A stretch of 62,973 nucleotides of DNA from an uncultured Bacteroidota bacterium (lineage in GTDB: Bacteria; Bacteroidota; Rhodothermia; Rhodothermales; UBA10348), in the NCBI GenBank assembly GCA_937877085.1, contig CALEEY010000207.1, positions 1 to 62,973 of the forward strand, given 5' to 3'. The translations under genes and the position numbers were made by a program. Below, one piece after another: positions 12,676 through 30,325 of the stretch. Below the pieces are notes generated by a model, which searched no databases, was not told the DNA's origin, and saw only the letters and a program-made list of their open reading frames with translations. Each line of letters begins with the position of its first letter. The first letter of the stretch is position 1.

Positions 12676-13980
12676 TCAACTGCCAATCGTCTTTTTAAGG
12701 CGTTCACGGATGCTTGCTGTGGAAACGTTCCCCGGCGTTCCGACTGTGGAGTACGCTTCAGAAAGCTTCATTTGAGCCTGTTCTGACCATAATGAGGGGG
12801 TCTGAGCTGCGTCGCGATACGCTTCTCGAAATGGTTTACCCTTCACAACCTCGGACAAAGCAGCCGCCGTGGCAAAGAGTTCGGGGTCGCGGGCGTTGTC
12901 CAATGGTTCTGATCTAAACGTCAGTCCCGCTAGTATCCCTTGTGTGGCCTCCAAAAGGTCTTTGAGGATGATGACCGCCCTCATCACGGAACCCTTCGTG
13001 AGCTGTAAATCCCGATGATATCCAGAGGGGAGATTGGCTGGAATCCCCAACAGCACTTGAAATTCGCCCGATAAGCGATGCATGGTGGCCCGTGCCAGTT
13101 CAGCTATATCTGGATTTTTTTTCTGGGGCATGATGCTACTCCCTGTGGTCAAGACATCGTTTAACTTGACAAATCCAAACTCTGCCGTCGCGTATAACAC
13201 CACATCGGAGGCGAGTCGATTGATCGTTGCCGCGCACTGAAGTAAGGCATGAACCACTTCTAGCTCATACTTTCCCCGGCTCAACTGCACGGCTGTGACG
13301 TTCTCCTGGACACGCTCAAAACCGAGGCTTTCGGCCACTTCCTGTCGAGGAAGGTTTACGTAGGGAATGCCGTACCCGGCCCCACTTCCCAACGGAGACG
13401 CGTTTATGCGTTTTCGAGCCTGAATCACTAAATCTAGGTCTTCCACCAAACTTTCGGCGTACCCAGCAGCCCAAAGCGCCACAGTACTCGGCATGGCCCG
13501 CTGCATGTGGGTATAACCCGGTAAAAATTGGTCTTGGTTGGCATCCGCCATGTCCGCCAATTGCAGCACGAGCCGTTCGATTTCAGATGCAGCATCATCC
13601 AAATTGAAACGAAGCCATAGGCGAATAGCCGCTAACACTTGATCGTTCCGAGAGCGACCAGTGTGGATTTTTTTGCCTATATCGCCCACTTTTTCGGTTA
13701 GAAAACGTTCAATCACCGTGTGGCAGTCTTCGTCTTCAAGCGATATCTGGATATCCCCATTCTCGAATGCGTCGGCTAAATCCGAAAAGGCACCATCCAA
13801 TGCGGTTAGCTCGTCTTCCGTTAGGATGCCTGCGGTAACCAATCCGGCCGCATGGGCGAGTGAAGCCGCGGCATCGAATGGCAGTAACATCATGTCCCAC
13901 ATGGGGTCATCGCCAACGGTGAATCGTGTTACCCACGAAGCAGTCTCTGTTCCTTTAAACCAAATAGGACGATCAGACAT
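12676..13980 (-). CDS. argH: Argininosuccinate lyase
   Basis: Fumarate-lyase signature GSSIMPQKKNPD. Start trimmed to MSDRPIWFKG (ATG 13978-13980), which overlaps the argE stop by 8 nt. Confidence 0.93.
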   Translation of the reverse strand: MSDRPIWFKGTETASWVTRFTVGDDPMWDMMLLPFDAAASLAHAAGLVTAGILTEDELTALDGAFSDLADAFENGDIQISLEDEDCHTVIERFLTEKVGDIGKKIHTGRSRNDQVLAAIRLWLRFNLDDAASEIERLVLQLADMADANQDQFLPGYTHMQRAMPSTVALWAAGYAESLVEDLDLVIQARKRINASPLGSGAGYGIPYVNLPRQEVAESLGFERVQENVTAVQLSRGKYELEVVHALLQCAATINRLASDVVLYATAEFGFVKLNDVLTTGSSIMPQKKNPDIAELARATMHRLSGEFQVLLGIPANLPSGYHRDLQLTKGSVMRAVIILKDLLEATQGILAGLTFRSEPLDNARDPELFATAAALSEVVKGKPFREAYRDAAQTPSLWSEQAQMKLSEAYSTVGTPGNVSTASIRERLKKTIGS

Positions 13981-15046
13981 GATGTAGCTCGAAATATGCT
14001 TTAATAATACGCTCGTAGGTCGCACAACTTTCAATGAGTTCTTGAATGTCGATGTGCTCGTCGGCCGTATGGGACAACCGACTGTCTCCTGGCCCGATTT
14101 TAACGGCAGGGATGTCTTTTACATGGATCCAGTCCGACATGGTCGGCGATCCAAACGTGCTGGACCCGCTTGAACCCAAAAGGCACGCCTCTACAATGGT
14201 TTCCGCGGGATCCGTATCAACAGAAATAAATCGCTTAGAATGAATGTGAACCGTCGATTCTATTTCCTGCTGAATCAACGCGGCAATTTCATCGTGGTCG
14301 TACAATGGCGTCGTGCGAATGTCTAAGAAAGCGGTACACGAATCGGCGATCATGTTGCGCGCAGAGCCGCCGTTGACCACCGTTACGTTGATAGTGGTTT
14401 TGCCGAGGTATGGGTGAACCCGGTCCAACGAAAATTGATCGAGACGGGCCAGATCCCGGACCATCATCGAAATCGCATTCTGCCCCTCCTCCGCCCTTGC
14501 GGCATGAGATGATTTGCCGTGCGCTTCCAATCGGAGAATGAGCAGTCCTTTTTGGGCTACACACGGCTGCATGTGCGTCGGCTCGCCAATCAACGCCGCG
14601 GCGGGCCGTGGGAGCTGATCAATAATTTGCTCCAGGCCGTTGTTTTCCCCTCCAGTTTCTTCGCAAGCCGTAAACGCAACCACGATTTTCCCCTGCGGCA
14701 TATATCCTGCGTGCGCTAATCGGCATACCGCGGTAGCCATGCTGGCAACGCTGGCTTTTGCATCGACCGTACCCCGTCCAAATACTTTTCCGTTCGAAAT
14801 CGTGGGTACAAACGGTGAAAAGGGATGATTGGAGGATGGTGGGACGACGTCAAGGTGGGAATTAAGAAGCAATACCCGATCCCCCTCTCCCCACTCGGCC
14901 ACCACATTGTCGCCAGCGCGGCTCACGTTCAGGCCAGCCTGGGTGAGATGCGTTTCTAGGAGGGTAGCGGCTTCCGATTCTTGATGGCTTAAAGATGGAA
15001 TAGCTACCAGCCGACGATGGAGTACGCAGACGTCTTGTTCAAGCAT
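13973..15046 (-). CDS. argE: M20-family N-acyl-ornithine deacylase (ArgE-like)
   Basis: M20 motifs (LNSHLDVVP, GRGTVDAKA, CEETGG) and operon position. Start trimmed to MLEQDV (ATG 15044-15046), which overlaps the argB stop by 8 nt. Confidence 0.75.
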   Translation of the reverse strand: MLEQDVCVLHRRLVAIPSLSHQESEAATLLETHLTQAGLNVSRAGDNVVAEWGEGDRVLLLNSHLDVVPPSSNHPFSPFVPTISNGKVFGRGTVDAKASVASMATAVCRLAHAGYMPQGKIVVAFTACEETGGENNGLEQIIDQLPRPAAALIGEPTHMQPCVAQKGLLILRLEAHGKSSHAARAEEGQNAISMMVRDLARLDQFSLDRVHPYLGKTTINVTVVNGGSARNMIADSCTAFLDIRTTPLYDHDEIAALIQQEIESTVHIHSKRFISVDTDPAETIVEACLLGSSGSSTFGSPTMSDWIHVKDIPAVKIGPGDSRLSHTADEHIDIQELIESCATYERIIKAYFELHHV

Positions 15047-15818
15047 GGCTGACCTCAATAAGTTGTGTTCCGCCTGCTTTCGAGGCCAACGAAGCTGGTC
15101 CCGATATCCAAACGGACGAAATACCGCGGCTAAGGGCAGAAAAACCAATATCTGTTTTCACTTTCATGCCTCCGGCGATCCAGCCTTTTGAAACACCCTC
15201 GCGCGACTGGGCTAAGGATAATCGTCGTATCGGGGTTTTGTCTTCGTTTAGCACGCCGCCCGATTCGGTGACCAATATCAGTTCATCGGCTTGAATAGCC
15301 GTGGCAATTTCGAGGGCTACCGTGTCTGCGTTAATGTTGAATAGCGAACCATTTTGGTCGATTCCTGGTGGACACACGACCGGCATAATACCCGATTGAA
15401 GAAGGGCCAATAGCGCCGTTGGATCCGCATGTTTAAAATCCCCCACGTGTCCAAAATCGACCGTTTTTCCGTCTACTGTCCAAAGAGGTCTTTTCGAAAC
15501 CTGAATCAGTCCCGCGTCTGCGCCGCTCATACCTAACGACCGAATGCCAGCCTGAGAGGCTTTGGCCACCAGCTCAACGTTGAGTTGGCCACGAATTATC
15601 CATTTAACGATATCGAGATCTAAATCGGTAGTTACTCGGCGCCCTTCAACTATGGTGGGCGTATGTCCTAGTCGCTCCGCCATGGCCGTGGTCTGTGGAC
15701 CGCCCCCATGAACCAAAACCACCTCTGACGCCTGCTGAAGGACGGCCAATGCTTCGAAGAAGGCGTCCAACGGCTGCCCTAGCAAGGCGCCACCTATTTT
15801 TACGACGGTTCGCTTCAT
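15039..15818 (-). CDS. argB: N-acetylglutamate kinase
   Basis: VVKIGG.., VLVHGGGPQ and NINADT motifs. Start trimmed to MKRTVVKIGG. ATG 15816-15818 overlaps the argF' TGA (ATGA). Confidence 0.92.
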   Translation of the reverse strand: MKRTVVKIGGALLGQPLDAFFEALAVLQQASEVVLVHGGGPQTTAMAERLGHTPTIVEGRRVTTDLDLDIVKWIIRGQLNVELVAKASQAGIRSLGMSGADAGLIQVSKRPLWTVDGKTVDFGHVGDFKHADPTALLALLQSGIMPVVCPPGIDQNGSLFNINADTVALEIATAIQADELILVTESGGVLNEDKTPIRRLSLAQSREGVSKGWIAGGMKVKTDIGFSALSRGISSVWISGPASLASKAGGTQLIEVSHA

Positions 15819-16957
15819 TGGTATTTGTCGGCGGGATGGGAGCCGCCCGCGTTGGAGGAGCCCGGGCTGGCAGAGCTCGCGTTGGAGGCAGCGGGGCCAG
15901 GGCTGGAAGCGTTCGCGTTGGCGGGGCCAGGGCTGGTAGGATTGGCATTTCGCTCCCAAAGCCAGTTAAGAATCGCTTTTTGAGCGTGCAGTCGATACTC
16001 GGCCTGATCCAAATGGAGTGTATTTGGACCGTCCAGTACCTCATTGTCCACCACCACTCCCCTTCTTACAGGAAGACAATGCATAAACTTGGCTTGGCCT
16101 TCGATTGTCCGAGCCATGACCTGTGGCGTGATCCTCCAGTTGGCATGAGCCTGCCGCTCGACTAGTTCGAGCGCTGGGTCGAGGTATCTCGTTTTTCCTC
16201 CCCAAGCCTTTGCATAGATGATGTGGGCATCTTTGGCGCTGGATTCAAGATCATTGGACTCTGAAACCGATCCTCCCATGTTGGCGGCCGAACGGCGGGC
16301 CAGGTTCATGACCTCCGGATCCAGTTCAAAACCATCGGGACGGGCAACCGTGACGTTCATACCCAAACGGGCTGCCATCAACAAGGCTGAATTTGGTACA
16401 GCCATTGGAAGCGCCTTTGGGTGGTATGCCCATGACAAAACAAATTTCTTTCCCTGGGGATTTCCAGCAAAGTGACGGGTCAGAACGGCGGCGTCGGCCA
16501 GTGCCTGGCACGGGTGTCGAGCAGCGGACTCCAAATTCAAAACAGGCACGGCCGACGCCGCCGCAAACTGCTTCAACATGTTGTCTTGCATATCGTTATC
16601 CCAATTGGTACCCGATGCAAACAATCGTACGCCAAGCAAATCGACATATCTGGACAACACCCCAACGGCTTCTTGAATGTGCTCCGCTTCTGCGCCTAGC
16701 ATGGGGGCCTTTTTGTCCCAAGCAAAACCCCAGGTTCCGCTGCCAGGCGTAACGGTAATTGGAGTGGCGCCAAGAGATGCAGAGGCCAATTCCATCGATA
16801 CACGTGTTCGAAGTGAGTCGTTGAAAAAAACCAATCCTACGCTTTTCCCAAGGTGGGTGTGCTCCAAACGTCTACGATCGGCGCCGTTTAGCAGGGCCTG
16901 TTCGATACAAGCCTTCCAGTCAGTTTCTGCTACATCAGCCCAATCGAGTAAGTGCAT
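15815..16957 (-). CDS. argF': N-acyl(acetyl/succinyl)-L-ornithine carbamoyltransferase with a low-complexity C-terminal tail
   Basis: Has FNDSLRTR, HPCQALAD and HCLPVRRG. The OTCase ornithine motif DxxxSMG is absent (YAKAWGG instead), as in AOTCase/SOTCase. The last ~40 aa (NPTSPGPANANASSPGPAASNASSASPGSSNAGGS...) are encoded by tandem repeats. Confidence 0.85.
   Translation of the reverse strand: MHLLDWADVAETDWKACIEQALLNGADRRRLEHTHLGKSVGLVFFNDSLRTRVSMELASASLGATPITVTPGSGTWGFAWDKKAPMLGAEAEHIQEAVGVLSRYVDLLGVRLFASGTNWDNDMQDNMLKQFAAASAVPVLNLESAARHPCQALADAAVLTRHFAGNPQGKKFVLSWAYHPKALPMAVPNSALLMAARLGMNVTVARPDGFELDPEVMNLARRSAANMGGSVSESNDLESSAKDAHIIYAKAWGGKTRYLDPALELVERQAHANWRITPQVMARTIEGQAKFMHCLPVRRGVVVDNEVLDGPNTLHLDQAEYRLHAQKAILNWLWERNANPTSPGPANANASSPGPAASNASSASPGSSNAGGSHPADKYQ
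15848..15940. repeat. ~30-36-bp degenerate tandem repeat x3 inside the argF' 3' end
   Basis: cgcgttggRgg recurs at 15848, 15878 and 15914. ggggccagggctgg recurs at 15893 and 15923. Confidence 0.85.
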
Positions 16958-18138
16958 TACGCTACGACCTCCATTTTTGAAGCCAATATTTCATCTAAAG
17001 CAGCAAAAAAGGAATCAATTTCAGCATCTGTAACAACCCCTGGAGGCATTAGGCGCATAATATTCGGATCGGTAGAACCTCCAACCAGGATACCTTTTTC
17101 CCGTAAATCGGTAGCAAAGGCTCCCATCGGTTGGCCAAAGTCAATACCAATTAAACATCCGGCCCCCTGAATGCGGAGCCCACGCTCGTTGCATCCTTTT
17201 TCGAAACGGTCATAAATTTGGACCGAGCGTTCGGTCAGATTTTCATCAATAAGCACTTTAAGTGTCGCTTCTACGGCGGCCATGGCCAGAGGGGCTCCTC
17301 CAAAAGTCGTCCCTTGATCGCCATACCCAACGGTGGCCGCTACCTCGTCGCGAATCAGAACAGCTCCAACGGGAACGCCGCCGCCCAAACTTTTGGCAAA
17401 CGTGATCATGTCCGGTTCAATTCCAAGCACTTGGCTATACGTAAAGGCCCCGGTACGACCAATTCCGGATTGCACTTCGTCCATAATGAGCATCGATCCA
17501 GCTTCTTTGCAGGCAGCTGCAACCAACCTGAAAAACGACACGGGAGCTGTTCTCATTCCTGCTGTCGATTGAATGGGTTCTATGATGACTGCGGCCGGCT
17601 TGCTTTCACGGATCACGGCACACGTTTTTTCGGCGTCCCCAAACGGCACGAAGGTAACGGGTCCGAAGGACGATTCATGTCCCTTTCGATAGGGGGCTTG
17701 CCAGGTAACCGATAGGGCTCCCAACGATCTGCCGTGAAAATCCCCCTCCATGGCCACTATTCCAGAACGGCCCGTAGCTTTGCGGGCAATTTTCATGGCC
17801 GTCTCATTAGCCTCGGCTCCTGAATTGATAAAAAAGATGTTTCCCATCCCTTTGGGCGCCAACGCTGCAAGCGCCGCAGAGGCACGGGCGCGTGCTGGGG
17901 AATAAACAGCGTTTGAATAAAACAAAAGCTTATCGGCTTGATCTTTCACCGCTTGGACAACAGCCGGATGATTGTGCCCCGTAAACACCACACAATGCCC
18001 TCCATAGAGATCCAGATATCTTTTCCCGTCGGTATCTACCACCCACGCGCCACGTCCGGATTCAAGGGAAATGGGCCATTTACGATACGTGTTGAGCTGG
18101 GTAGCATCTTCCAGTTCCATCCATTCAGCTGAAGTCAT
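16957..18138 (-). CDS. argD: Acetylornithine (class III) aminotransferase
   Basis: DEVQSGIGRTG and FAKSLGGG (PLP lysine) motifs. The stop TAA shares one nt with the argF' ATG (TAATG). Confidence 0.9.
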   Translation of the reverse strand: MTSAEWMELEDATQLNTYRKWPISLESGRGAWVVDTDGKRYLDLYGGHCVVFTGHNHPAVVQAVKDQADKLLFYSNAVYSPARARASAALAALAPKGMGNIFFINSGAEANETAMKIARKATGRSGIVAMEGDFHGRSLGALSVTWQAPYRKGHESSFGPVTFVPFGDAEKTCAVIRESKPAAVIIEPIQSTAGMRTAPVSFFRLVAAACKEAGSMLIMDEVQSGIGRTGAFTYSQVLGIEPDMITFAKSLGGGVPVGAVLIRDEVAATVGYGDQGTTFGGAPLAMAAVEATLKVLIDENLTERSVQIYDRFEKGCNERGLRIQGAGCLIGIDFGQPMGAFATDLREKGILVGGSTDPNIMRLMPPGVVTDAEIDSFFAALDEILASKMEVVA

Positions 18139-18189: not shown

Positions 18190-19185
18190 TCAAGGAAGTA
18201 ATCCGGTTGTTTGGTCCATTCCCAGCGCCAAATTAACGTTTTGAATGGCCTGAGTCGCCGCACCTTTTAACAAGTTGTCGATCGCAAATCCAATGGCTAC
18301 TTGATTTCCCCTCTGAACCCATCCAATGTCGGTAAAAGGTGATCCAACGCTCCAGTGGAGTTCAGGCAATTGATTGGGCCACAGTCGCACGAGGGGACAA
18401 TCTTGGTAGGCTGCCTGAAAATACGGGCCGAACAGATCTGATGGAGTCTTTTCCCCACCAGAAATTTCCACTTGGGCGACCCCCCAGATTCCATCGGTCC
18501 AGGGCCCCGAAATGGGTACGAACGAGTAATGAACATCCGGCGCCATCTGATCGATTTCCGCTTCGTGCTGATGTTCAAATACTTTATACGCTTTCACATT
18601 GCCACTTCGGCTCGGAAAATGGGTCGTGTCCTTGGCCACGGCTCCCGATCCACTGGCACCAGTAAGCGCCGCTATGGCAACAGTAGCTGAGATACGGGCT
18701 TTGGAGAGCGGAAAAAGCGCCAACGATATCGCGGATGCAAAACACCCCGGATTGGCAATCAACTTAGTACCGGGAGGCGGCGGTCCGGTAATTTCGGGTA
18801 ATCCGTACCACGCCGATTCGAGCAATTCAGGACGAGGATGCGGCGCGCCATACCGTTTTTGATAGGTAGTCGCGTCTTTCAGGCGAAAATCGGCGCTCAT
18901 ATCAACAATCAGACCGGCAAACCCTTGGTCTAGGAGTTCCCCAACAGCCAGCGCTCCCTGACCGTGCCCAGCCGCGACAAAAATGACATCCACCGGTGTT
19001 TCAATACGGGCGGTGAAGTCCAAATCTGAAACGCCGCGCAAATGGGCGTGCGCCTTCCAAATGGGCTGGTTCTCATGGGAACGGCTGGTAACCGCATCGA
19101 GCCGCATTTCTGGATGCGCCAATACGTATTCGATCAGCTTTCTACCGACATAACCTGCGCCATGAAGAATTCCCACCCGTATCAT
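18190..19185 (-). CDS. argC: N-acetyl-gamma-glutamyl-phosphate reductase
   Basis: N-terminal Rossmann motif GILHGAGYVG. Catalytic Cys region ANPGCFASA. The ATG overlaps the upstream stop (ATGA at 19182-19185). Confidence 0.9.
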   Translation of the reverse strand: MIRVGILHGAGYVGRKLIEYVLAHPEMRLDAVTSRSHENQPIWKAHAHLRGVSDLDFTARIETPVDVIFVAAGHGQGALAVGELLDQGFAGLIVDMSADFRLKDATTYQKRYGAPHPRPELLESAWYGLPEITGPPPPGTKLIANPGCFASAISLALFPLSKARISATVAIAALTGASGSGAVAKDTTHFPSRSGNVKAYKVFEHQHEAEIDQMAPDVHYSFVPISGPWTDGIWGVAQVEISGGEKTPSDLFGPYFQAAYQDCPLVRLWPNQLPELHWSVGSPFTDIGWVQRGNQVAIGFAIDNLLKGAATQAIQNVNLALGMDQTTGLLP

Positions 19186-20252
19186 TCTGCAACCTCCCGA
19201 ACAGCCGGCGGCTTTAAATACGTGGCGATAAGATCCCCCATTTCCTGTGGATCCTCTCGGGCATTGATGGCCGGAATCCCCATAACCTGACGAATGTACT
19301 GACGACCGACGCCGTTATCCGTGACGGGTCCCGTTACAAGCGCGATACTAGCATGATACCTGTCCTTGAACAAGGTCTGAGCAGCCCAAATGCCAGCAAG
19401 GTCCACTCCGGTTACGATGTGAGCTACGCAAAATGACTGCAACTCCTTGTCTTGCAACAGTTCATCGACACCATAGTATCCAATAATTCCGTCTCCCAAT
19501 TCAATCACGATTACGTCTGGATCGGCGGTAGTGTTCAGGTGATGGATAATTCCCTTCACATTTTTGGCCATCGTTTTGGAGGCCGAACACACGATTCCGG
19601 TATCCGTAAATGTGGCAATGGCCACGGCACCGTGGCGTTCGATGAGTCTGACGTCGCGCATGAGGGATGCGCCCGTAGCTTTCGCTGCCGCCACACGATA
19701 TCCTTTACGGGATAAACGCTGCACTAACTCGCAACAAGCCCACGTCTTTCCGGTGTCCATAGCCGTTCCGCTAACAAAAATTAACGGACACGATTGGGTC
19801 AAGTTTTCGACTTCGGGAAGCGCATGGTCTTGTAAACGAGCATGAACCCACATGCCTTCAGACTGAACCATGGCCGCGCCGATCACTTTAACTCGAAGTG
19901 CGGGGCCCAGCGAAGGATGGTCCGAAGTACAGTTTCCGATGATTCCACCCAAATTGAGCACGTTTAGCGTATCTCCCGGCAGGGCAATTCTGGGCACCTG
20001 TCCACTATATCCTTTCAGCGCTTTCCGTTCGCCCAGCACGCCCACAAAGACGTCTCCTTTGGCGATGGTTCTGAATTCGCCATCGGAGCACTCAATCTGG
20101 TTGTAAATCGCTTTGGACTCGAGAGCCTCGACGACAATGCAGTATCCTTCTTGAGCTACCACATAGTCTGATACGGTAACATCCCTGTCCAATCCGGTTT
20201 TCGCGGCGGTTGAACAAACATAGGTTACTTGCATGGTATTCATTTTGGTCAT
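19182..20252 (-). CDS. Uncharacterised P-loop (SIMIBI/BioD-CobQ-DUF1611-like) protein embedded in the arg operon
   Basis: ATGA overlaps with argG (20249-20252) and argC (19182-19185). Has the Walker-A-like FVSGTAMDTGKT, the Walker-B-like DVIVIELGDGIIG, and an N-terminal ~150 aa I cannot place. Confidence 0.6.
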   Translation of the reverse strand: MTKMNTMQVTYVCSTAAKTGLDRDVTVSDYVVAQEGYCIVVEALESKAIYNQIECSDGEFRTIAKGDVFVGVLGERKALKGYSGQVPRIALPGDTLNVLNLGGIIGNCTSDHPSLGPALRVKVIGAAMVQSEGMWVHARLQDHALPEVENLTQSCPLIFVSGTAMDTGKTWACCELVQRLSRKGYRVAAAKATGASLMRDVRLIERHGAVAIATFTDTGIVCSASKTMAKNVKGIIHHLNTTADPDVIVIELGDGIIGYYGVDELLQDKELQSFCVAHIVTGVDLAGIWAAQTLFKDRYHASIALVTGPVTDNGVGRQYIRQVMGIPAINAREDPQEMGDLIATYLKPPAVREVAE

Positions 20253-21454
20253 GGCTTTGGAGTGGATGCGGAGCGAACTCGATGGGTTAAAAGTGACTGC
20301 AGGCCAAGAATGCGCGCAAACCCTCTAGCGTCCCGCCCATCCCACAATTGATTGCTCTCGCCGTACGTGGCGACCCCGGTGTCAAACAAAGAAAACGGGC
20401 TCTTTGTGCCTTGAATAGCAACATTTCCCTTGTACAGACTGATAGAAACTGTTCCCGTAACCGTTTCTTGGGATGAATTCATAAACGCCTCAATGTCCCT
20501 CAGAGCGGGATCAAAATATTGCGCTTCGTGGAGCATCATACCATAGAAATCGCCTAATTGGGCTTTGTGATACTGTTGCCAGCGTGACAATACCGTCTTT
20601 TCCAGTTCCCGGTGAGCCGGAATCAGAATGGCAGCGGCAGCTGCTTGAAAACCCACGCGGCCTTTGATACCCAAAATGGTATCTCCCACGTGAATAGCGC
20701 GGCCAATACCGTGCTCTTCTCCGATTCGGTTCAGTGCTTCAATCAATTCAACCGGAGACATGCTTGAACCATCGATGCTGACCGGAGTGCCCTTCTCAAA
20801 CCCAATCACAACGGAAACGGCCTGATCTGGCGAATCTTTAGGAGAGGGGGTCGGCCATGCACTGTCTGGAAGCGGCTTTTCGGTCGTTAGGGTCTCTTTT
20901 CCACCAACCGTCGTTCCCCAAAGCCCGGTATTGATCGAATAGGTGGTCGTGGAAGCAGAAACGGCATACCCCCTTTCCTTCAACCAGTTTGTCGTGTATT
21001 CGCGCGTTAGACCTAGGTCCCGAATCGGAGTGAGAATGGTCAAATCATCTCCAAGCACGGATAATGCTACATCAAATCGGATTTGGTCGTTTCCAGCCCC
21101 CGTCGAGCCGTGGGCCACTACCGAAGACTTCAGTTTGCGGGCCATATCGACCAAGGCCTTAGCCTGAACCACTCGGTCTGGACCTACACAAAGCGGGTAA
21201 ACTTCCCCGCGTAGCACGTTGCCCTTGATGAGGTACTGGATGGATCGTTCAAAAAGCTCGTCTCTGGCATCCACCAAGTAATGCCCGGCGGAGCCAAGCT
21301 CTTTGGCCCGAAGCTCAATTTGTTGGCATTCCAGTTCGCTGAGCCCCCCTGTGTTAACGGTAACGGTATACACAGGGACGTTGTGTTCTTCCCTCAGGTA
21401 CGGCACGCAAAACGACGTGTCGAGACCTCCACTAAAAGCAACTACAATTGACAT
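20249..21454 (-). CDS. argG: Argininosuccinate synthase
   Basis: AFSGGLDTS ATP-PPase motif, ..HGSTGAGNDQIRF.. About 400 aa. Confidence 0.95.
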   Translation of the reverse strand: MSIVVAFSGGLDTSFCVPYLREEHNVPVYTVTVNTGGLSELECQQIELRAKELGSAGHYLVDARDELFERSIQYLIKGNVLRGEVYPLCVGPDRVVQAKALVDMARKLKSSVVAHGSTGAGNDQIRFDVALSVLGDDLTILTPIRDLGLTREYTTNWLKERGYAVSASTTTYSINTGLWGTTVGGKETLTTEKPLPDSAWPTPSPKDSPDQAVSVVIGFEKGTPVSIDGSSMSPVELIEALNRIGEEHGIGRAIHVGDTILGIKGRVGFQAAAAAILIPAHRELEKTVLSRWQQYHKAQLGDFYGMMLHEAQYFDPALRDIEAFMNSSQETVTGTVSISLYKGNVAIQGTKSPFSLFDTGVATYGESNQLWDGRDARGFARILGLQSLLTHRVRSASTPKP

Positions 21455-21486
21455 GGCAAAATCGAGTTAAAAGTGCGCTTTAGGTA

Positions 21487-21523
21487 AATAAAAAAAGCGC
21501 CGGTTCCATACGGATCGGCGCTT
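21487..21523 (-). terminator. Intrinsic terminator 35 nt upstream of the argG ATG (candidate attenuator terminator)
   Basis: The minus strand reads aagcgccg-atccgtatggaac-cggcgctt followed by TTTTTTTATTT. Confidence 0.8.
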
Positions 21524-21558
21524 GAGTCGGTTGACGTAGTCGGGCTACATCAGGCTAC

Positions 21559-21645
21559 CTAACTTGCTACGAATCCGCATACCCCGAAGGATATCTGTCG
21601 GATTCGTCGGCGAAGACTGGTAGTAATATGGGTGGTAATGGTCAT
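21559..21645 (-). CDS. Candidate arginine-operon leader peptide (28 aa)
   Basis: My translation is MTITTHITTSLRRRIRQISFGVCGFVAS*. CGC CGA CGA ATC CGA gives 4 Arg in 5 codons at 21598-21612, overlapping the 5' arm of a 9-bp hairpin. Confidence 0.45.
   Translation of the reverse strand: MTITTHITTSLRRRIRQISFGVCGFVAS
21569..21607 (-). promoter_or_regulatory. Leader hairpin overlapping the Arg codons
   Basis: On the minus strand, acgaatccg (21607-21599) pairs with cggattcgt (21577-21569). An inner stem atatcc-UUCG-gggtat needs a G-U pair on the minus strand but gives a C-A mismatch on the plus strand. Confidence 0.6.
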
Positions 21646-21653
21646 AGAGTTCA

Positions 21654-21683
21654 ATTATACGGCTAAATATGGAATGCAATCAA
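21654..21683 (-). promoter_or_regulatory. Sigma-70-like promoter candidate for the arg leader
   Basis: TTGATT (21683-21678), 18-nt spacer, TATAAT (21659-21654). Only 8 nt lie between the -10 box and the leader ATG, which implies a near-leaderless transcript. Confidence 0.35.
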
Positions 21684-21690
21684 CCATTTT

Positions 21691-22080
21691 TCAAACTTCA
21701 TACGAATCTAAAACAGGGACATCGTTCCAAACCCTAAGGTGGTATTGTTGAAGCTGTTTTAACTGGTCTAGTCCGAGACGCGTCAACCGGTAATAAATGC
21801 GAGGCCGGCCACCCTGTTGATCCTCGTTCTTAACCGATCGTTTTTCTATGATTTTCCTCAACGCAAGCTGATCAAGAGAAACCCAGAGGCTACCCACGGT
21901 CACTTTCTTTTGTGCTCGGGAAACCATTTCAGCCATAATCGATGTGCTATAGGCGTCATTTCCGAGCACCATAATCGCGATCAATAAGATCTCATCGGCC
22001 CGGGAAAGCGGCCTTGAAGATGTCTTTATCGATATTTTTTGGGACGTTTTTGCCACGTGGTTCAGGATTGGGCGCGTCAA
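21691..22080 (-). CDS. PadR-like winged-helix transcriptional regulator
   Basis: ..ILLIAIMVLGNDAYSTSIMAEM...GSLWVSLDQLALRKIIEK...GGRPRIYYRLTRLG resembles the PadR wHTH. The start is uncertain (TTG at 22080 or GTG at 22056). Confidence 0.6.
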   Translation of the reverse strand: MTRPILNHVAKTSQKISIKTSSRPLSRADEILLIAIMVLGNDAYSTSIMAEMVSRAQKKVTVGSLWVSLDQLALRKIIEKRSVKNEDQQGGRPRIYYRLTRLGLDQLKQLQQYHLRVWNDVPVLDSYEV

Positions 22081-22125: not shown

Positions 22126-22141
22126 ACCTAGGCACCTAGGC
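22126..22141. repeat. 8-bp tandem duplication containing the leuD stop codon
   Basis: The minus strand reads GCCTAGGT GCCTAGGT. The first copy carries the leuD TAG (22136-22138). Confidence 0.7.
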
Positions 22142-22696
22142 CATAAGACCCGCGCGGCGAGCATATTCAAAAACGTTTCCGCACTTCAATATTTCAGCTA
22201 CATCTCCCAGCGGGTTCAACAAATATTCGGCGCCTGAAGTCGCATTTGACAAGATTCCGGTTCGGGTGTCGAGTGTGAGTTCATCCCCCGTTTGGATCAT
22301 GTCAACTAACCGCATGCTGGATTCGAACGGGATTACAAAGCCACCATCTACTGCATTACGATAAAAGATGCGTGCATAGGACTCCGCGATAACCACCTCT
22401 GCACCGGCTTCCTGAATGGCAAACGGAGCGTGTTCACGCGAGGATCCGCAGCCAAAATTGGTCCCGGCAATCACGAACGTGAATTCACTTTTAAATTGGT
22501 CGGGGGGCGTAAATGGCACATTCCCAACCGGTAGTCCTTGCTCCCCTTCTGGAAGCCCACATAGGGCATATCGTCCGTAAAACTGGCGTTCTTCCGGCAA
22601 CTTCATGCTGTAAACCAGGTGGATGGCGGGAATTATTTGATCGGTGTCGATCGAGTCCCCTACAACGTAAGCTTTTCCTTTAATGATGTCTTTCAT
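22136..22696 (-). CDS. leuD: 3-isopropylmalate dehydratase small subunit
   Basis: Start trimmed to [23 protein letters not shown] (ATGA overlap with the leuC stop at 22693-22696). [13 protein letters not shown] motif. Confidence 0.88.
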
Positions 22697-23991
22697 ACCA
22701 AAACCTCGCGAGGGTCTGTAATGGTCCCATTGAGCGCTGATGCGGCCACTGTTAATGGGGAGGCTAGGTAGACGGCCGCCTGCTTGGAACCCATTCTTCC
22801 GGGAAAATTGCGATTGGTTGTAGAAATGACCACCTCCGTACCATGCGTCCTCCCGAAGGTATCGACGGGCCCGCCCAGGCAAGCCCCGCACGATGCATGG
22901 CCCATTTTGCAACCTGCATCGAGGAACACCTGCCAAATGGTTTTACCATTCATGGTTCGCTCTCGGAGCTGCCGGGTAACCTCGGAGCTCGCGGGAACCA
23001 CAAAAGTATCTATGCGAACTTCATTGCCTTCCAGAATGCTCGCGGCTGCCATAAAGTCTTCAATTTTCCCGCCGGTGCAGCTTCCAATGTAGGCTCGATC
23101 AAGTTTTGTCCCAGCGACTTCCGAAACGTTGGCTAGATTGTCCGGGCGGTGGGGTTTAGCAACTACAGGCTCCATTTTGGAAACATCGTACACCCGTTCA
23201 GAAAAAAACGTGGCACCCGCATCGCCGTAGACCGGCTCGAAACCATGGTCGGTACGCGCGCGCACATATTCGAACGTCTTTTCATCCGGAGCAATAATGC
23301 CGTTTTTACCGCCGGCTTCGATGGCCATGTTAGTGAGCGTCATGCGCTCCTCCATGGACAAGTCGAAAACGGCTTTCCCGTCGAATTCTAGTGCCTTATA
23401 GGTCCCGCCTTCAAAACCAATATCTCCAATGACGGAGAGGATTAGGTCTTTGGCCATCAAGTACGGGGGGAGATCTCCCTCAAACACAAAACGCATAGTG
23501 TCCGGGACTTTCACCCAGATCTTTCCCGTTCCCATAATGAGAGCCGCGTCCGTATTTCCCACGCCCGTAGAAAAGAGCCCGAAAGCTCCCGAGGTGCAGG
23601 TATGGCTATCTGTACCAAATAGCACGTTGCCGGGCCGGTTGAATCCTTCCTCAGCTAACGCTATGTGGCACACTCCCTTATACTGACTGGTACCCACATC
23701 GTAGTAGTGTGGAAGATCGTGCAGGCTGGCAAAATCCCTCAACAGCTCGATATTTCGCCGAGCATGCGGGTCCTCTGTGAAGATGTAATGGTCTGGCAAG
23801 ATCACCAATTTGTTCTTGTCCCAGACTTTGGCCGACTCACCGAATTCTCGTTTGAAAATATCGATTGTGGGTGGGCCACACACATCGTGCGTCATCAAAA
23901 TATCCACGTCAATCCAGATGTTTTCTCCTGGATTAACGCGTGCACGGTTCGCGTGCTGGGCTAAAATCTTCTGGGTTATTGTCTGTGCCAT
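22693..23991 (-). CDS. leuC: 3-isopropylmalate dehydratase large subunit (short, ~430-aa type)
   Basis: Aconitase-family motifs and Fe-S cysteines ([21 protein letters not shown]). Confidence 0.9.
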
Positions 23992-23997
23992 CGATCC

Positions 23998-25614
23998 TTA
24001 TTCTGGGGTGCCGCTTCCGAAGGCCTGCATGATTCCTGTTCCTACGAACTGAATGGACTCTTCTTCCGCACGATGGGCCGCCAAAGAATTGAGGGCATTC
24101 ATATAGGCTTCAGCCGAGGCATGAATGACGTCCGTACTGCTTGCTTTGCCCGCAAACAATGGTCCTCCGAAACTAATAAGGACGGAGACCTCTCCAAACG
24201 CATCGGCTCCTTCGGATACCGAGCGGATCGAGTAATTAACCAGATCGTGCCCTTCGTTTACGGCGTGATCGATGGCTCGGTACAAGGCGTCGATGGGGCC
24301 ATCGCCAGTCGCTGATTTTTCAACGACTTCGTCGCGCTTTAAATCGCGAATCGTGACTTTGGCTTCTGGTTCTTTATCGGTACCAACGGATACCTGAAAG
24401 CTTTCTAGTTTATAGTGAGGTTCTGTTTTCACGTTTTTATAATCGTGGACGAGGTTAAATAAATCGGTATCGTTGATCTCTTTCTTGCGATCCGCAAGAC
24501 GTACGAACTCATCGTAAATAAGATCTTTTTCGCTTGGAGGTATTCGAATGCCCAGTTGATCCATTCGGCTAAATAATCCATGGCGACCGGAGTGCCGACC
24601 TAGGCGAATTGCCTGTACATCCTGGCCAACATCCTCAGCCCGCATAATTTCGTATGTTTCGCGCGCTTTTAGAACCCCATCTTGATGAATTCCAGCCTCA
24701 TGTGTGAAGGCATTTCGTCCGACAATGGCTTTGTTGTACTGCACTTGAAATCCCGAAAAGGTCGAAACTATTTTAGAGATTTGAGTCAATAGGGCCGGAT
24801 TAATGCCCGTTTTCAGTTCGAAATGAGGCGCTCTAACCAACAAGGCCATCGCGATTTCTTCCAAAGCCGCGTTCCCGGCTCGTTCGCCAATTCCGTTGAT
24901 GGTGCATTCCACTTGGCGCGCGCCAGCTTGGACTCCACTCAGCGAATTAGCAACCGCTAAGCCGAGATCGTCGTGGCAATGGGTTGAAAAAATGACATGT
25001 TGACCAAACGTACACCCATTCATGACGCGGCGAATTAAATCGGCATATTCATCCGATATGCAGTATCCGGTCGTGTCGGGCAAATTGATGGTGGTCGCGC
25101 CAGCGTCAATCACGGCTTGAACCACTTCGCACAAATAATCGGTGCCCGTGCGGCCGGCATCCTCCGCGCTAAACTCGATGTCGGACGTGAAGGTTTTTGC
25201 TCTTAAAACGGCATCCACAGCCATTTTTTTAATGGTGAGGCGCTTTTCCTCAATGGTTTTTCCATACCGAGCGTCGGCGAATTTGGCGTTCAGGTGAATA
25301 TCGCTGGTCGCAATGAAGGTGTGAATGCGGGTATTCACTCCTCCTTCTAGGGCCTTACCCGCAGCGTCGATATCCGCACTTTTTGCCCGCGCGAGCGCGC
25401 AAATGGTTGGCCCCGATACTTCCTTTACAATGCGCCTGACCGCTTCAAATTGGGCGGGCGATGAGATAGGAAAACCCGCTTCGATGACATCGACCCCCAA
25501 ACGAGCCAATTGGTGCGCAATTTCAACCTTTTCTGGAATGGTCATGGCAGCTCCTGGAGCTTGCTCCCCGTCCCGCAAGGTGGTGTCAAAAATGATTACT
25601 GAATCCCAAGGCAT
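23998..25614 (-). CDS. leuA: 2-isopropylmalate synthase
   Basis: TTLRDGEQ and [13 protein letters not shown] motifs, plus a C-terminal LeuA regulatory domain. Confidence 0.93.
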
Positions 25615-25647
25615 GATACTTTGTCCTTTTTGAGCCTATTGGTTTTG

Positions 25648-26721
25648 CTACTTGGCGCGGCCAATGTGGAGGATGATTTCTGAAACGAATGTCGATGTCT
25701 GAACGGAAGGGCTTCCGTCAACCACGAGATCTGCGGTTCGCCACCCTGCTTTTAAGGTGTCCTCAACCGCCTGACGAATGCATTTCGCGGCTGCGGCCTC
25801 TCCCCACTCTTCCAGCATCATGGCTGCGCTCAAGATGGCGGCGACGGGATTCGCTACGTCCTTTCCGGCCAATTCCGGGGCGCTCCCGTGCACGGGTTCA
25901 AAAAGAGGGGTCGATCCGCCCAAACAAGCCGAGGGCAGCAGCCCAAGACTCCCAGCCAATGTGGAAGCCAGATCAGAAAGAATGTCCCCAAACAGGTTTC
26001 CTGTTAGAATAACATCGAATTGGAGGGGATTTAGGACCAATTGCATGGCCGCGTTATCTACGTACAGATGGTTCATTTGTACGTCCGGAAACTCGTCCCG
26101 GGCTATCCGACTGGCGGTTTCTCGCCAAAGGCGAGAAACCGCCAGCACATTAGCTTTATCGACTGAGGTAACTCTTCCGCTTCGACGAAGAGACCAGGCA
26201 CAGGCCACTCGGGTAATTCGCTCGATTTCTCCAACGGAGTACCGCATGGTATCCAGCGCATATTCCGCTTCCAAAATGCGCGGCTTCCCGAAATAGATGC
26301 CCCCAATGAGTTCACGAACCACCAAAATATCGGCTCCAGCCACTTTAGCTGGTGGCAACGCGGATAAATGAGCCAATGAAGCGGGTACGGCTACCGGCCG
26401 CAGATTGGCGAACACGCCTAATCCCGAACGAAGCGCCAAAAGACCGCCTTCCGGTCGATCTTCTCCGTTCAAATGGTCCCATTTGGGTCCGCCAATGGCC
26501 CCCATTAAAACGCCATCTGCCTTTTCGCAAGCGGACAATGTTTCCGGGGGAAGAGGACGGCCTTCTTTATCGATTGCAGCTCCTCCAAACGGACGTTCTT
26601 CAAAGGTCAGGGCAAGATTGAACGTCCCAGCGACCTTTTCCAACACGGATTGAGCAGCCTTCGTTACCTCCGGCCCAATCCCATCTCCAGGAAGCAACAC
26701 AATATGTTTGGATGATCTCAT
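25648..26721 (-). CDS. leuB: 3-isopropylmalate dehydrogenase
   Basis: LLPGDGIGPEV start, NLFGDILSD signature, GSAPELAGK. Confidence 0.93.
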   Translation of the reverse strand: MRSSKHIVLLPGDGIGPEVTKAAQSVLEKVAGTFNLALTFEERPFGGAAIDKEGRPLPPETLSACEKADGVLMGAIGGPKWDHLNGEDRPEGGLLALRSGLGVFANLRPVAVPASLAHLSALPPAKVAGADILVVRELIGGIYFGKPRILEAEYALDTMRYSVGEIERITRVACAWSLRRSGRVTSVDKANVLAVSRLWRETASRIARDEFPDVQMNHLYVDNAAMQLVLNPLQFDVILTGNLFGDILSDLASTLAGSLGLLPSACLGGSTPLFEPVHGSAPELAGKDVANPVAAILSAAMMLEEWGEAAAAKCIRQAVEDTLKAGWRTADLVVDGSPSVQTSTFVSEIILHIGRAK

Positions 26722-26748
26722 GCTATCAACGTTAGTTTTTAATCCCGA

Positions 26749-27780
26749 TTAAGCTGAAACGGATACTCCTTTCTCCTTTGGAGTCGGTGGTGCGGCGTCT
26801 TTACGGATCCAAGACATCATATTCCTCAGCTTTTTGCCGATGGTTTCCATCGGATGGTTCAGCGAAGCACTGCGTAATTTGGACATATTAGGCCAACCAG
26901 CATCGCATTCCGCTATCCATTCCCGTGCAAACTCCCCACTTTGAACTTCGTCCAATATTTTCTTCATTTCCTTTTTGACTTCCGCCGTCACGATGCGGCT
27001 TCCGCGAGAATACCCTCCGTATTCAGCGGTATCGCTCACCGACTTGTTCATCATTTCCAAACCCCCCTCGTAATACAAGTCTACAATGAGCTTCATTTCG
27101 TGGAGGCATTCAAAATAGGCCAACTCGGGGGCGTACCCGGCTTCAACTAGGGTCTCAAACCCCGCTTTTATGAGAGACTCCGTGCCGCCACACAGGACCG
27201 CTTGCTCTCCAAAAAGGTCGGTCTCAGTTTCATCCTTAAAATTCGTTTCGATAACGCCCGCCCGCATCCCGCCAATCCCCTTGGCCCAACTGAGTGCGAG
27301 GTCTTTGGCGTTTCCAGTGGCATCTTGAGCAACCGCCACGAGGCAGGGAACGCCTTTTCCTTCTTCAAAGGTACGTCGAACTAAATGCCCCGGCGATTTA
27401 GGGGCCACCATAAACACATCTACACCCGGTGGTGGCGCTATCTGTCCATAGTGAACGTTAAATCCATGCCCAAAAGCCAATGCTTTGCCTGGCGTCATGT
27501 GCTGGGCAATAGAGGCATTGTAGACGGTTTTTTGGATCTGGTCCGGAATTAAGACCATCACTATGTCGGCCCATTTCGCCGCTTCCGAAACCGTCATCGC
27601 CTGAAGTCCTTTGGCCTCAACCTCTGCCGCCGAGGAAGAGCCTTCTTGCAGGCCCACTACTACTTGGACTCCACTTTCATGGAGGTTGAGGGCATGCGCA
27701 TGTCCCTGACTTCCGTAACCGATAACCGCAACTTTCTTGTTTTGAATGAGGCCGAGATCGGCTTCGTAGTGCATTTTCAT
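26749..27780 (-). CDS. ilvC: Ketol-acid reductoisomerase
   Basis: [13 protein letters not shown]ossmann motif and the typical class I length. Confidence 0.95.
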
Positions 27781-27867
27781 AATCGTAATTCTGTAATTGA
27801 ACGTAAAATTCGGTGAGTGCGCCGTCGTTGGATGTGCGCGAGGCTAGTTTCTGGGACGGGTGGATAT

Positions 27868-28485
27868 TTAGTGTTCAAATGCGAGTTCGCGTCGCATGGC
27901 AACCCTTCCGCTTCTCGCGACTTCGAGCACATCATAGCCCCGCATCATCCCGATGAAGGCGTTTATTTTTGCCGGGGGTCCTGTAACTTCAAACGTGAGA
28001 CTATCGGGCGTGATGTTGACCACGGTGGCTCTGAATATGTCCACAACGCTAATCAAAACTTGCCGCTCGGATGCGGGACATCTCACTTGAACCAAGCACA
28101 ATTCGCGTTCAATATGGTCAAAATGAGTTACATCTTCGACCTCAATGGTATCTATCAGGCTGTTGAGCTGGCGAAGAACTTGACCAATCATGCGATCATT
28201 ACCGGTCGTTACGAGGGTCATGCGGCGCAGTGTTTGGTCCTTTGCTTCTCCAACCGAGACACTTTCTAGTTCAAATCCGCGTTGGGAAAACAAATTGGCC
28301 ACGCGGTTAAGGGCGCCAAGCGTATTCTCGACTAAGACCGTCACGACGTGGCGCTGGAGGGTGTCCGTGCCGTCCGGATGCAAGGATTCGCCAGCCATTT
28401 GTTTTCGAAAGATCTGCTGGGAAGTCAGCATAGGTCCGGATGTTTGGGTTTGGGTTTGGGTTTGGGTTTGGGTTTGAGTGTTCAT
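27868..28485 (-). CDS. ilvN: Acetolactate synthase small (regulatory) subunit
   Basis: ACT domain RHVVTVLVENTLGALNRVANLFSQRGFELESVSV. The ATG at 28483-28485 sits 1 nt after the ilvB stop. Internal Met codons (MLTSQQ, MAGES) are alternative starts. Confidence 0.88.
   Translation of the reverse strand: MNTQTQTQTQTQTQTSGPMLTSQQIFRKQMAGESLHPDGTDTLQRHVVTVLVENTLGALNRVANLFSQRGFELESVSVGEAKDQTLRRMTLVTTGNDRMIGQVLRQLNSLIDTIEVEDVTHFDHIERELCLVQVRCPASERQVLISVVDIFRATVVNITPDSLTFEVTGPPAKINAFIGMMRGYDVLEVARSGRVAMRRELAFEH
28442..28477. repeat. Hexanucleotide microsatellite (GTTTGG)5+GTTTGA, = (CAAACC)n on the coding strand
   Basis: Encodes (TQ)6 right after the first ATG of ilvN, or lies in the ilvB-ilvN spacer if a downstream start is used. 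Confidence 0.95.
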
Positions 28486-28486
28486 A

Positions 28487-30289: not shown

Positions 30290-30325
30290 CTCAGTGTGCG
30301 GTAAATAAACAATTAGGGGCTAGGT

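Follow-up and report, generated by a model that had tools for sequence, protein, structure and literature searches.

Although the arginine pathway is a staple of biochemistry textbooks, entire lineages seem to lack its first enzyme, among them Rhodothermales, many Acidobacteriota, Myxococcota-like bacteria and the Woeseiaceae, which abound in marine sediment; since this enzyme is apparently missing, genome-based auxotrophy predictions fail for them. In Bacteroides, BT3761 is a GNAT N-succinylglutamate synthase with genetic support, which lies in an arginine-biosynthesis operon and has argG (BT3760) and argC (BT3759), with adjacent locus tags, among its most co-fit genes (PMC8121099). The GapMind 2026 preprint (July 2026) predicted an alternative ArgA, the Steroidobacter protein ACG33_RS14135 (A0A127FCT3), on the grounds of its conserved place in arg clusters, its lack of co-occurrence with ArgA homologues and a rule concerning position 92 of the N-acylornithine carbamoyltransferase ArgF', and found a remote Foldseek similarity of this protein to DgcN (7XRJ, E=1.4e-7) (bioRxiv 10.1101/2024.10.14.618325). 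Here we describe a gene, termed X, within an arginine operon of an uncultured Rhodothermales bacterium (contig CALEEY010000207.1 of assembly GCA_937877085.1; the whole stretch of 62,973 nucleotides (nt) is referred to as the window).

We propose that X would catalyse the opening step of a linear arginine pathway, as an N-succinylglutamate synthase with succinyl-coenzyme A (succinyl-CoA) as donor, and assign this a probability of about 0.68. The more general role of an N-acylglutamate-forming first enzyme, by either a CoA or an ATP route, is very probable, and the X family is an obvious candidate for closing the first-step gap. As the preprint already predicts such a role, the idea is not new; what is added here is its extension to another phylum, a fusion to an ArgB-like domain, quantified synteny, a fold nearest to BioD, and an N-terminal domain with no solved match.

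Results

X is a 356-amino-acid (aa) open reading frame (ORF) with an ATG start. Its features are as follows.
19182..20252, minus strand: X, below every Pfam and NCBIfam cut-off (basis: ORF call, homologue clusters, synteny)
19809..20252, minus strand: predicted all-beta N-terminal domain, residues 1-148 (basis: AlphaFold2 models, Foldseek, conservation)
19185..19808, minus strand: predicted SIMIBI-class, BioD-like C-terminal P-loop domain, residues 149-356 (basis: Foldseek, weak profile matches)
19743..19769, minus strand: Walker A/P-loop G162-TAMDTG-K169-T170, of the GTxxxxGKT type of BioD, CobQ and DUF1611 (basis: read from the sequence, conservation)
19671..19682, minus strand: K191-A-T193-G194, after strand 2 (basis: invariance, HMMER alignments to BioD chains)
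19488..19502, minus strand: E251-L-G253-D254-G255, a Walker-B-like E-G-x-G at the end of a beta strand (residues 247-254) (basis: conservation, model)
19314..19331, minus strand: G308-P-V-T-D-N313, a loop past the last core strand (basis: conservation)

A preliminary description of the sequence had reported this ORF with ATGA overlaps on both sides, and both can be read directly: the argG TGA and the X ATG share the ATGA at 20249-20252, and the X TGA and the argC ATG share that at 19182-19185, each a 4-nt overlap. The start is ambiguous between M1, M4 and M7. In homologues at most 87% identical to X, the start corresponds to M4 and lies about 20 nt past argG, so the exact argG/X overlap is specific to the lineage of the window. 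The three motifs named in the same description were likewise located, the Walker-A-like FVSGTAMDTGKT at residues 159-170, the ATG-type KATGAS at residues 191-196 and the Walker-B-like DVIVIELGDGIIG at residues 246-258.

Scanning against Pfam and NCBIfam gave no model at cut-off for X, and hence no confident match to a family of unrelated role, which the preliminary description had named as evidence against its proposal. No GNAT (Acetyltransf) or ArgJ domain was found by these scans in X or in 31 aligned homologues, and distant full-length members likewise lack a Pfam or NCBIfam assignment. Weak matches were confined to the P-loop and comprised DUF1611_C, CbiA, AAA_26, cobW, BioD, CobQ and MobB. 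For PF07755 (DUF1611_C), the match spans only about 40 residues (153-194), and its 19.6 bits fall short of the cut-off of 25; TIGR00347 (BioD) scored 18.8 bits against 83.3. Within the family, DUF1611_C is the commonest weak Pfam match (25 of 31 members, best E=5.5e-7), ahead of BioD and CbiA.

The AlphaFold2 model of X, built from 31 homologues, has a predicted local distance difference test score (pLDDT) of 93.2 and a predicted template modelling score of 0.90, and comprises two domains, all-beta up to about residue 148 and alpha/beta P-loop thereafter. The N-terminal domain of about 150 aa, which had earlier been noted without placement, is real and has no solved relative: modelled alone it reaches pLDDT 94.4, and a Foldseek search of this model against the PDB returned nothing significant (best E=0.2, TM at most 0.30). 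No DUF1611_N or other Pfam match was found over residues 1-150. Foldseek matches of the whole protein in the PDB are confined to the C-domain and are led by the dethiobiotin synthetases 3of5 (E=9e-7, target TM 0.62), 1dae, 1dts and 6e05, with target TM values of 0.55-0.62 for BioD structures, followed by signal recognition particle (SRP)/FtsY GTPases, HypB and the amidoligase domain of CTP synthase. PDB sequence searches, with the family profile and with a DUF1611-leaning homologue, gave marginal BioD P-loop matches only (E 0.05-0.2), and not 7XRJ, 2G0T or 2OBN. The SIMIBI-type layout suggested earlier is thereby upheld, the C-domain having, on the AlphaFold2 model, a SIMIBI/BioD-like fold.

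In the broad alignment A2, which reaches down to 23% identity, the invariant positions are the P-loop G168-K169, K191, G194, E251, G253 and a few glycines and prolines, and T170, D200, D217, D246, R76, E54, D67 and G255 are at least 90% conserved. In the N-domain, G36, P87, G103, G106 and G125 are invariant across the family and E54, D67 and R76 nearly so (alignments A2 and A3). G308, P309, T311 and D312 are invariant in alignment A1, and G308 also in A2. With the P-loop Lys, K191 and E251 all invariant, this pattern reads as enzyme-like. The N-domain is presumably the substrate-binding domain, and the G308-N313 loop is a possible binding loop for a nucleotide or CoA base.

The same fold and residues raise the alternative that X is an ADP-forming succinate:L-glutamate ligase, in which ATP would phosphorylate the carboxylate and the resulting acyl phosphate would be attacked by the amine of glutamate. 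Such a reaction would dispense with a CoA thioester and would directly re-use the succinate freed by ArgE. The acyl-phosphate route is shared by the group of BioD, CobQ and CTP synthase, and the Lys of the BioD 'KPv' motif is catalytic in BioD. HMMER alignments place the column of the invariant K191, and likewise the corresponding Lys of homologue P0044, against the Lys of this 'yKPv' motif; E-x-G-x-G is conserved (E251 and G253 invariant, G255 at least 90%), in a form that we take to resemble the BioD EGAGG motif. Among solved folds, the ATP-dependent dethiobiotin synthetases come nearest, with CTP synthase also matched, the best PDB sequence matches are all BioD, and paralogues of X lie in clusters rich in ATP-grasp ligases. 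Against this, DgcN, the only characterised N-acylating enzyme of the P-loop subgroup, is reported to use acetyl-CoA; weak DUF1611_C matches are more frequent than those of BioD or CbiA; and the known first-step enzymes of the pathway all use acyl-CoA. We consider the ligase unlikely, and give the same low weight to the broader picture that would follow from it, a new CoA-independent class of first-step arginine enzymes with an all-beta N-domain lacking a solved counterpart, whose paralogues in natural-product clusters would N-acylate building blocks of amino or phosphonate type.

The operon containing X has the order argG-X-argC-argD-argF'-argB-argE-argH and is tightly packed. Besides X, it contains the following genes, the internal starts of argB, argE and argH being inferred from homology.
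20249..21454, minus strand: argG, argininosuccinate synthase (TIGR00032, 312.6 bits against a cut-off of 268)
18190..19185, minus strand: argC (TIGR01850, 281 bits against a cut-off of 234)
16957..18138, minus strand: argD, N-acylornithine aminotransferase (Aminotran_3, E=2e-98; argD subfamily models about 352 bits)
15815..16957, minus strand: argF', N-acylornithine carbamoyltransferase (NF003384, 395 bits against a cut-off of 288)
15039..15818, minus strand: argB, N-acylglutamate kinase, start inferred at M48 of a long ORF (TIGR00761, 193.6 bits against 151)
13973..15046, minus strand: argE-like M20 deacylase, start inferred (Peptidase_M20 and M20_dimer; TIGR01910 DapE-ArgE, 184 bits, under the cut-off of 217.6)
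12676..13980, minus strand: argH, argininosuccinate lyase, start inferred at M19 of a long ORF (TIGR00838, 324.6 bits against 279.5)

The argB product is short, with AA_kinase as the sole Pfam match, and thus consists of the kinase domain alone with no GNAT domain. The M20 deacylase is presumed to be an N-succinylcitrulline desuccinylase. The earlier claim that the cluster lacks a first-step enzyme was confirmed and extended: no GNAT, ArgA or ArgJ was found in the operon or elsewhere among the 28 window ORFs scanned by profile (8 of the operon and 20 further). The translational locking of X that had been inferred from its overlaps stands in part. The overlaps are real, but with the inferred starts argD and argF' overlap by 1 nt, argF' and argB share an ATGA, and argB/argE and argE/argH each overlap by 8 nt, with gene overlaps at five of the seven operon junctions; translational coupling is therefore a property of the whole packed operon and not special to X, in addition to the lineage-specific nature of the argG/X overlap.

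Homologues of X form 1051 clusters at 90% identity, and an exhaustive profile search recovered 1577 representatives (50% identity) at E<=1e-3, of which 202 lie below 1e-30. Close relatives occur in 179 genomes (one genome per species), nearly all with Rhodothermales, Salinibacter, Salinivenus, Longibacter, Rubricoccaceae or Rubrivirga labels, and the window is 96% identical at the protein level to metagenome-assembled genomes (MAGs) labelled Bacteroidetes or Rhodothermales. To quantify synteny, 160 loci were counted, 80 from genomes and 80 from a metagenome scan seeded with distant members. All 80 fetched genome loci have the gene order of the window as far as the contig reaches. Among loci with at least 600 nt downstream, argC immediately follows X in 141/141 cases (78/78 genome and 63/63 metagenome loci). 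On the other side, argG immediately precedes X in 129/132 loci (74/74 and 55/58, respectively). Because the argG-X-argC arrangement recurs across related loci, it is not due to chance. X is thus kept in the arg clusters of related genomes, where its absence had been put forward as grounds for abandoning the proposal, and is found in arg clusters of other phyla as well.

Lineages with X in arg loci include Rhodothermales, Woeseia, Acidobacteriota and Myxococcota-like genomes, together with metagenomes. The distant homologues in arg operons have only about 29-42% identity to X, and their gene orders are as follows.
Myxococcota-like genome: argG-X-argC-argD-argF-argB-argH
Blastocatellia: argR-argG-X-argC-argF-argB
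Further lineage (one contig): X-argC-argD-argB-argE-argR-argG-argH
Woeseia (homologue P0352): argR-argG-X-argC-argD-argF-argB-argH
Thermoanaerobaculia: argR-argG-X-argC-argD
Soil-metagenome bin (L091, 10001-12111): X-argC only, an exception to the full-operon rule

The Woeseia homologue is clear, and a search seeded with it returned more than 120 Woeseiaceae sequences. No GNAT, ArgA or ArgJ was found in the Pfam-annotated neighbourhoods of the distant X loci.

These gene neighbourhoods also bear on the notion that X is an accessory NTPase, either a HypB-, UreG- or CobW-type metallochaperone that serves the M20 deacylase, or a partner or regulator of ArgC or ArgB. HypB and SRP-type NTPases among the Foldseek matches, the weak cobW Pfam match and the strict adjacency to argC would fit such a role. 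X is also present, however, in operons with no M20 gene (Myxococcota-like, Blastocatellia and Woeseia), and its GTxxxxGKT P-loop and EGxG motif are of the BioD/CobQ type and not that of G3E proteins. With this type of P-loop, and with no GTPase or G3E-family model at cut-off in the profile scans of X, the role of a G3E metallochaperone was rejected. An accessory role would moreover leave the missing first step unexplained, while the conserved N-domain and the fusion described below to an ArgA-like kinase domain indicate step-one catalysis. Taken as a whole, an accessory NTPase is very improbable.

A fusion of X to an amino-acid-kinase domain was found in the representative P0174, annotated as acetylglutamate kinase, whose full ORF spans 673 aa (locus L081, 9860..11881). 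Residues 1 to about 356 correspond to X over its whole length (E=3e-51, 32% identity), and the C-terminal 280 residues form an amino-acid-kinase domain with similar scores for the argB model (127 bits, below its cut-off) and for the kinase-like half of ArgA models (95-105 bits). Compared with ArgB of the window, the fusion has KIAD in place of KIGG and AVASD in place of NINAD, and its kinase domain appears to be a non-catalytic, ArgA-like regulatory domain. The architecture resembles that of classical ArgA, with X standing where the GNAT domain would be. Since four independent metagenome assemblies (L081-L084) carry the same 673-aa ORF, an assembly artefact was ruled out.

The gene caller had clipped 47 N-terminal residues from the fusion. 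The fusion gene stands alone, divergent from an arginase-family gene (PF00491), with no other arg genes within 10 kb in L081 and also in L082-L084. A second apparent fusion of X, the 687-aa P0251, was rejected as a frameshifted, low-complexity gene call.

The acyl group was approached through ArgF'. The window ArgF' is closest to the Xanthomonas N-acetylornithine carbamoyltransferase (AOTCase), with 3l02, the E92A mutant, as its best PDB match, and its Ala91 (codon 16685-16687) aligns to Glu92 of that enzyme. In 67 related loci, this specificity position is Ala in 62, Ser in 3, Pro in 1 and Val in 1, and Glu in none. In the preprint's account of Shi et al. 2007, it is exactly the substitutions A/S/P/V that switch specificity to N-succinylornithine (bioRxiv 10.1101/2024.10.14.618325). 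As ArgF' in these loci never has Glu at the specificity position, the pathway most likely runs on succinylated intermediates and the product of X is most likely N-succinylglutamate. The preliminary description had suggested that X may supply the missing N-acyl-glutamate-forming step or another acyl-handling step, and named an acetyltransferase as a precedent; the role is supported by the arg linkage, fold, fusion and preprint prediction, with succinyl rather than acetyl as the most likely acyl group.

In loci L087 and L098 of one lineage, which have the order X-argC-argD-argB-argE-argR-argG-argH, no carbamoyltransferase gene is present. The argument from ArgF' for succinyl over acetyl is therefore not applicable there, and the deacylase of these loci may act on N-acylornithine rather than N-acylcitrulline.

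The window ArgF' also has a C-terminal tail of about 40 aa (residues ~340-380; 15815-15940, minus strand), a low-complexity stretch rich in Pro, Ser, Ala and Asn that includes NANPTSPGPANANASSPGPAASNASSASPGSS. It lies outside the coverage of the Xanthomonas enzyme and of the tblastn matches in related loci, which stop at about residue 334-336.

Drawing on gene anatomy, fold class, invariant residues, arg linkage, the fusion and the ArgF' residue, we propose a reaction, a donor and roles for the two domains. In this pathway, X would succinylate the amino group of L-glutamate, forming N-succinyl-Glu in place of the absent GNAT-type ArgA, followed by conversion to N-succinylornithine by ArgB, ArgC and ArgD. 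ArgF' would then carbamoylate N-succinylornithine, the M20 ArgE would strip the succinyl group to give citrulline, and ArgG and ArgH would complete arginine synthesis. The BioD-like P-loop domain may hold the phosphates of the acyl donor via G168-K169-T170, K191 and E251-x-G253, with the all-beta N-domain supplying the glutamate site. Succinyl-CoA is moderately preferred over succinate plus ATP as donor because of the analogy with DgcN, the only characterised N-acylating relative.

Several observations weigh against this proposal. X does not qualify as a member of DUF1611/DgcN, the family mentioned in the preliminary description: it stays below the Pfam cut-off, with PF07755 covering the P-loop alone, and its all-beta N-domain differs from DUF1611_N. 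DgcN itself (7XRJ) is outside the 50 best Foldseek PDB matches, which extend down to E=1.1e-4 and are led by ATP-dependent BioD enzymes, BioD being the nearest solved structure. The preprint gives the function of the X-like protein as a prediction, with no experiment reported. The linkage of X is tightest to argC and not to argB, and in a Planctomycetota MAG (L089, 10001-11632) X lies beside a NUDIX hydrolase with no arg genes nearby. Finally, an ArgE-type gene is present in 51/59 genome and 16/25 metagenome loci of sufficient length and is missing from the fetched locus in about one fifth.

The long loci with no ArgE (8/59 and 9/25) could instead be accounted for if X were an ArgJ-like transacylase, moving succinyl from N-succinylornithine or N-succinylcitrulline to glutamate and so substituting for the missing ArgA and, in some genomes, for ArgE as well. 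Adjacency to argC would agree with this, as argJ often adjoins argC. Steroidobacter has neither ArgA nor ArgE (bioRxiv 10.1101/2024.10.14.618325). In the window and in most Rhodothermales loci, however, an ArgE-type deacylase is encoded in the same operon; the P-loop fold is without precedent for acyl transfer between amines; and a cyclic pathway would still require a de novo synthase. A transacylase is thus difficult to credit, and the N-succinylglutamate synthase is the reading that we retain.

Upstream of argG lies a 129-aa ORF (21691-22080, minus strand) with a sub-threshold PadR-like match (26.2 against 27 bits), which is not ArgR; a 236-nt intergenic region (21455-21690) separates it from argG. 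In Woeseia, Acidobacteriota and many metagenome loci, the position upstream of argG is occupied by ArgR. Directly upstream of the arg operon and on the same strand is a branched-chain amino-acid cluster (22136-32095, minus strand), in which leuD, leuC, leuA, leuB, ilvC, the acetolactate synthase small subunit and two large ORFs, probably ilvB and ilvD, were read by eye; the small subunit (27868-28485) was confirmed by Pfam.

Discussion

Paralogues of X were encountered when plasmids were searched by tblastn for true DgcN, which returned only full-length X paralogues, some annotated as DUF1611 or dethiobiotin synthase and none at the Pfam cut-off. Full-length two-domain paralogues lie in apparent phosphonate natural-product clusters on plasmids of Priestia megaterium (NZ_CP085446.1; L093, 5947-7008) and Bacillus paranthracis (NZ_CP116206.1; L094, 5863-6891). 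In tblastn, the Priestia paralogue matched with 27% identity (E=7e-25) at a query coverage of 88%, and the Bacillus paralogue was matched by hhalign against A2 (probability 99.7%); one phosphonate-cluster paralogue is annotated DUF1611, below the Pfam cut-off. The clusters encode a phosphoenolpyruvate (PEP) mutase-family protein, a split thiamine pyrophosphate (TPP) decarboxylase, ATP-grasp ligases, an OTC/ATC-like carbamoyltransferase, an M20 N-acyl-amino-acid amidohydrolase and a TauD dioxygenase. The location of these paralogues beside carbamoyltransferase-like and N-acyl-amino-acid amidohydrolase-like genes fits an N-acylating role.

A second paralogue subfamily occurs in Rhodobacterales (Paracoccus and Tritonibacter plasmids; L092, 5848-6900; L095, 3632-4684; L096, 4917-5969), with an hhalign probability of 99.9% against A2 for the Tritonibacter paralogue L095. 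These genes always lie between an alpha/beta hydrolase (upstream) and an ATP-binding cassette (ABC) exporter (downstream), near an S8 peptidase and an extracytoplasmic function (ECF)-type sigma factor, and are annotated 'DUF1611', 'dethiobiotin synthase' or not at all.

Among the described systems, the Steroidobacter family is the most similar, being a hypothetical protein of arg clusters (argB/C/D/F'/E/G/H/R) in genomes with no ArgA and with A/P/S/V at position 92 of ArgF'. The two differ in that Steroidobacter lacks ArgE, whereas the window (Rhodothermales, Rhodothermota) has ArgE in the operon, and the preprint makes no mention of a fusion, an N-domain or a BioD-like fold. Woeseia, with its X homologue in an arg operon, is presumably close to Steroidobacter in GTDB. 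Compared by description, X and the Steroidobacter protein very likely belong to the same family.

DgcN (D-glutamate N-acetyltransferase, DUF1611, 7XRJ) is like X a GTxxxxGKT P-loop protein and N-acylates glutamate, as is proposed for X, but is reported to act on D-Glu with acetyl-CoA, in catabolism; X in addition lacks DUF1611_N and has an all-beta N-domain. BioD (3of5, 1dae, 1dts) is the best structural match of the X C-domain, with the P-loop type, the Lys after strand 2 and E-G-x-G common to both, and differs in being single-domain, with another substrate and pathway and no arg linkage. If the proposed function is correct, X would join a single other known P-loop N-acyltransferase; should it prove to be a ligase, ATP dependence would be new to this step.

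BT3761 shares with X the proposed reaction and the succinyl variant of the pathway, but its GNAT fold is unrelated to X, and X operons contain no GNAT gene. Classical ArgA (amino-acid-kinase plus GNAT) and bifunctional ArgJ occupy the same position in the pathway as proposed for X, with acetyl in place of succinyl and with no relation to X in sequence or fold. With the proposed function, X would represent a third unrelated solution to N-acylglutamate synthesis, beside the GNAT enzymes and ArgJ.

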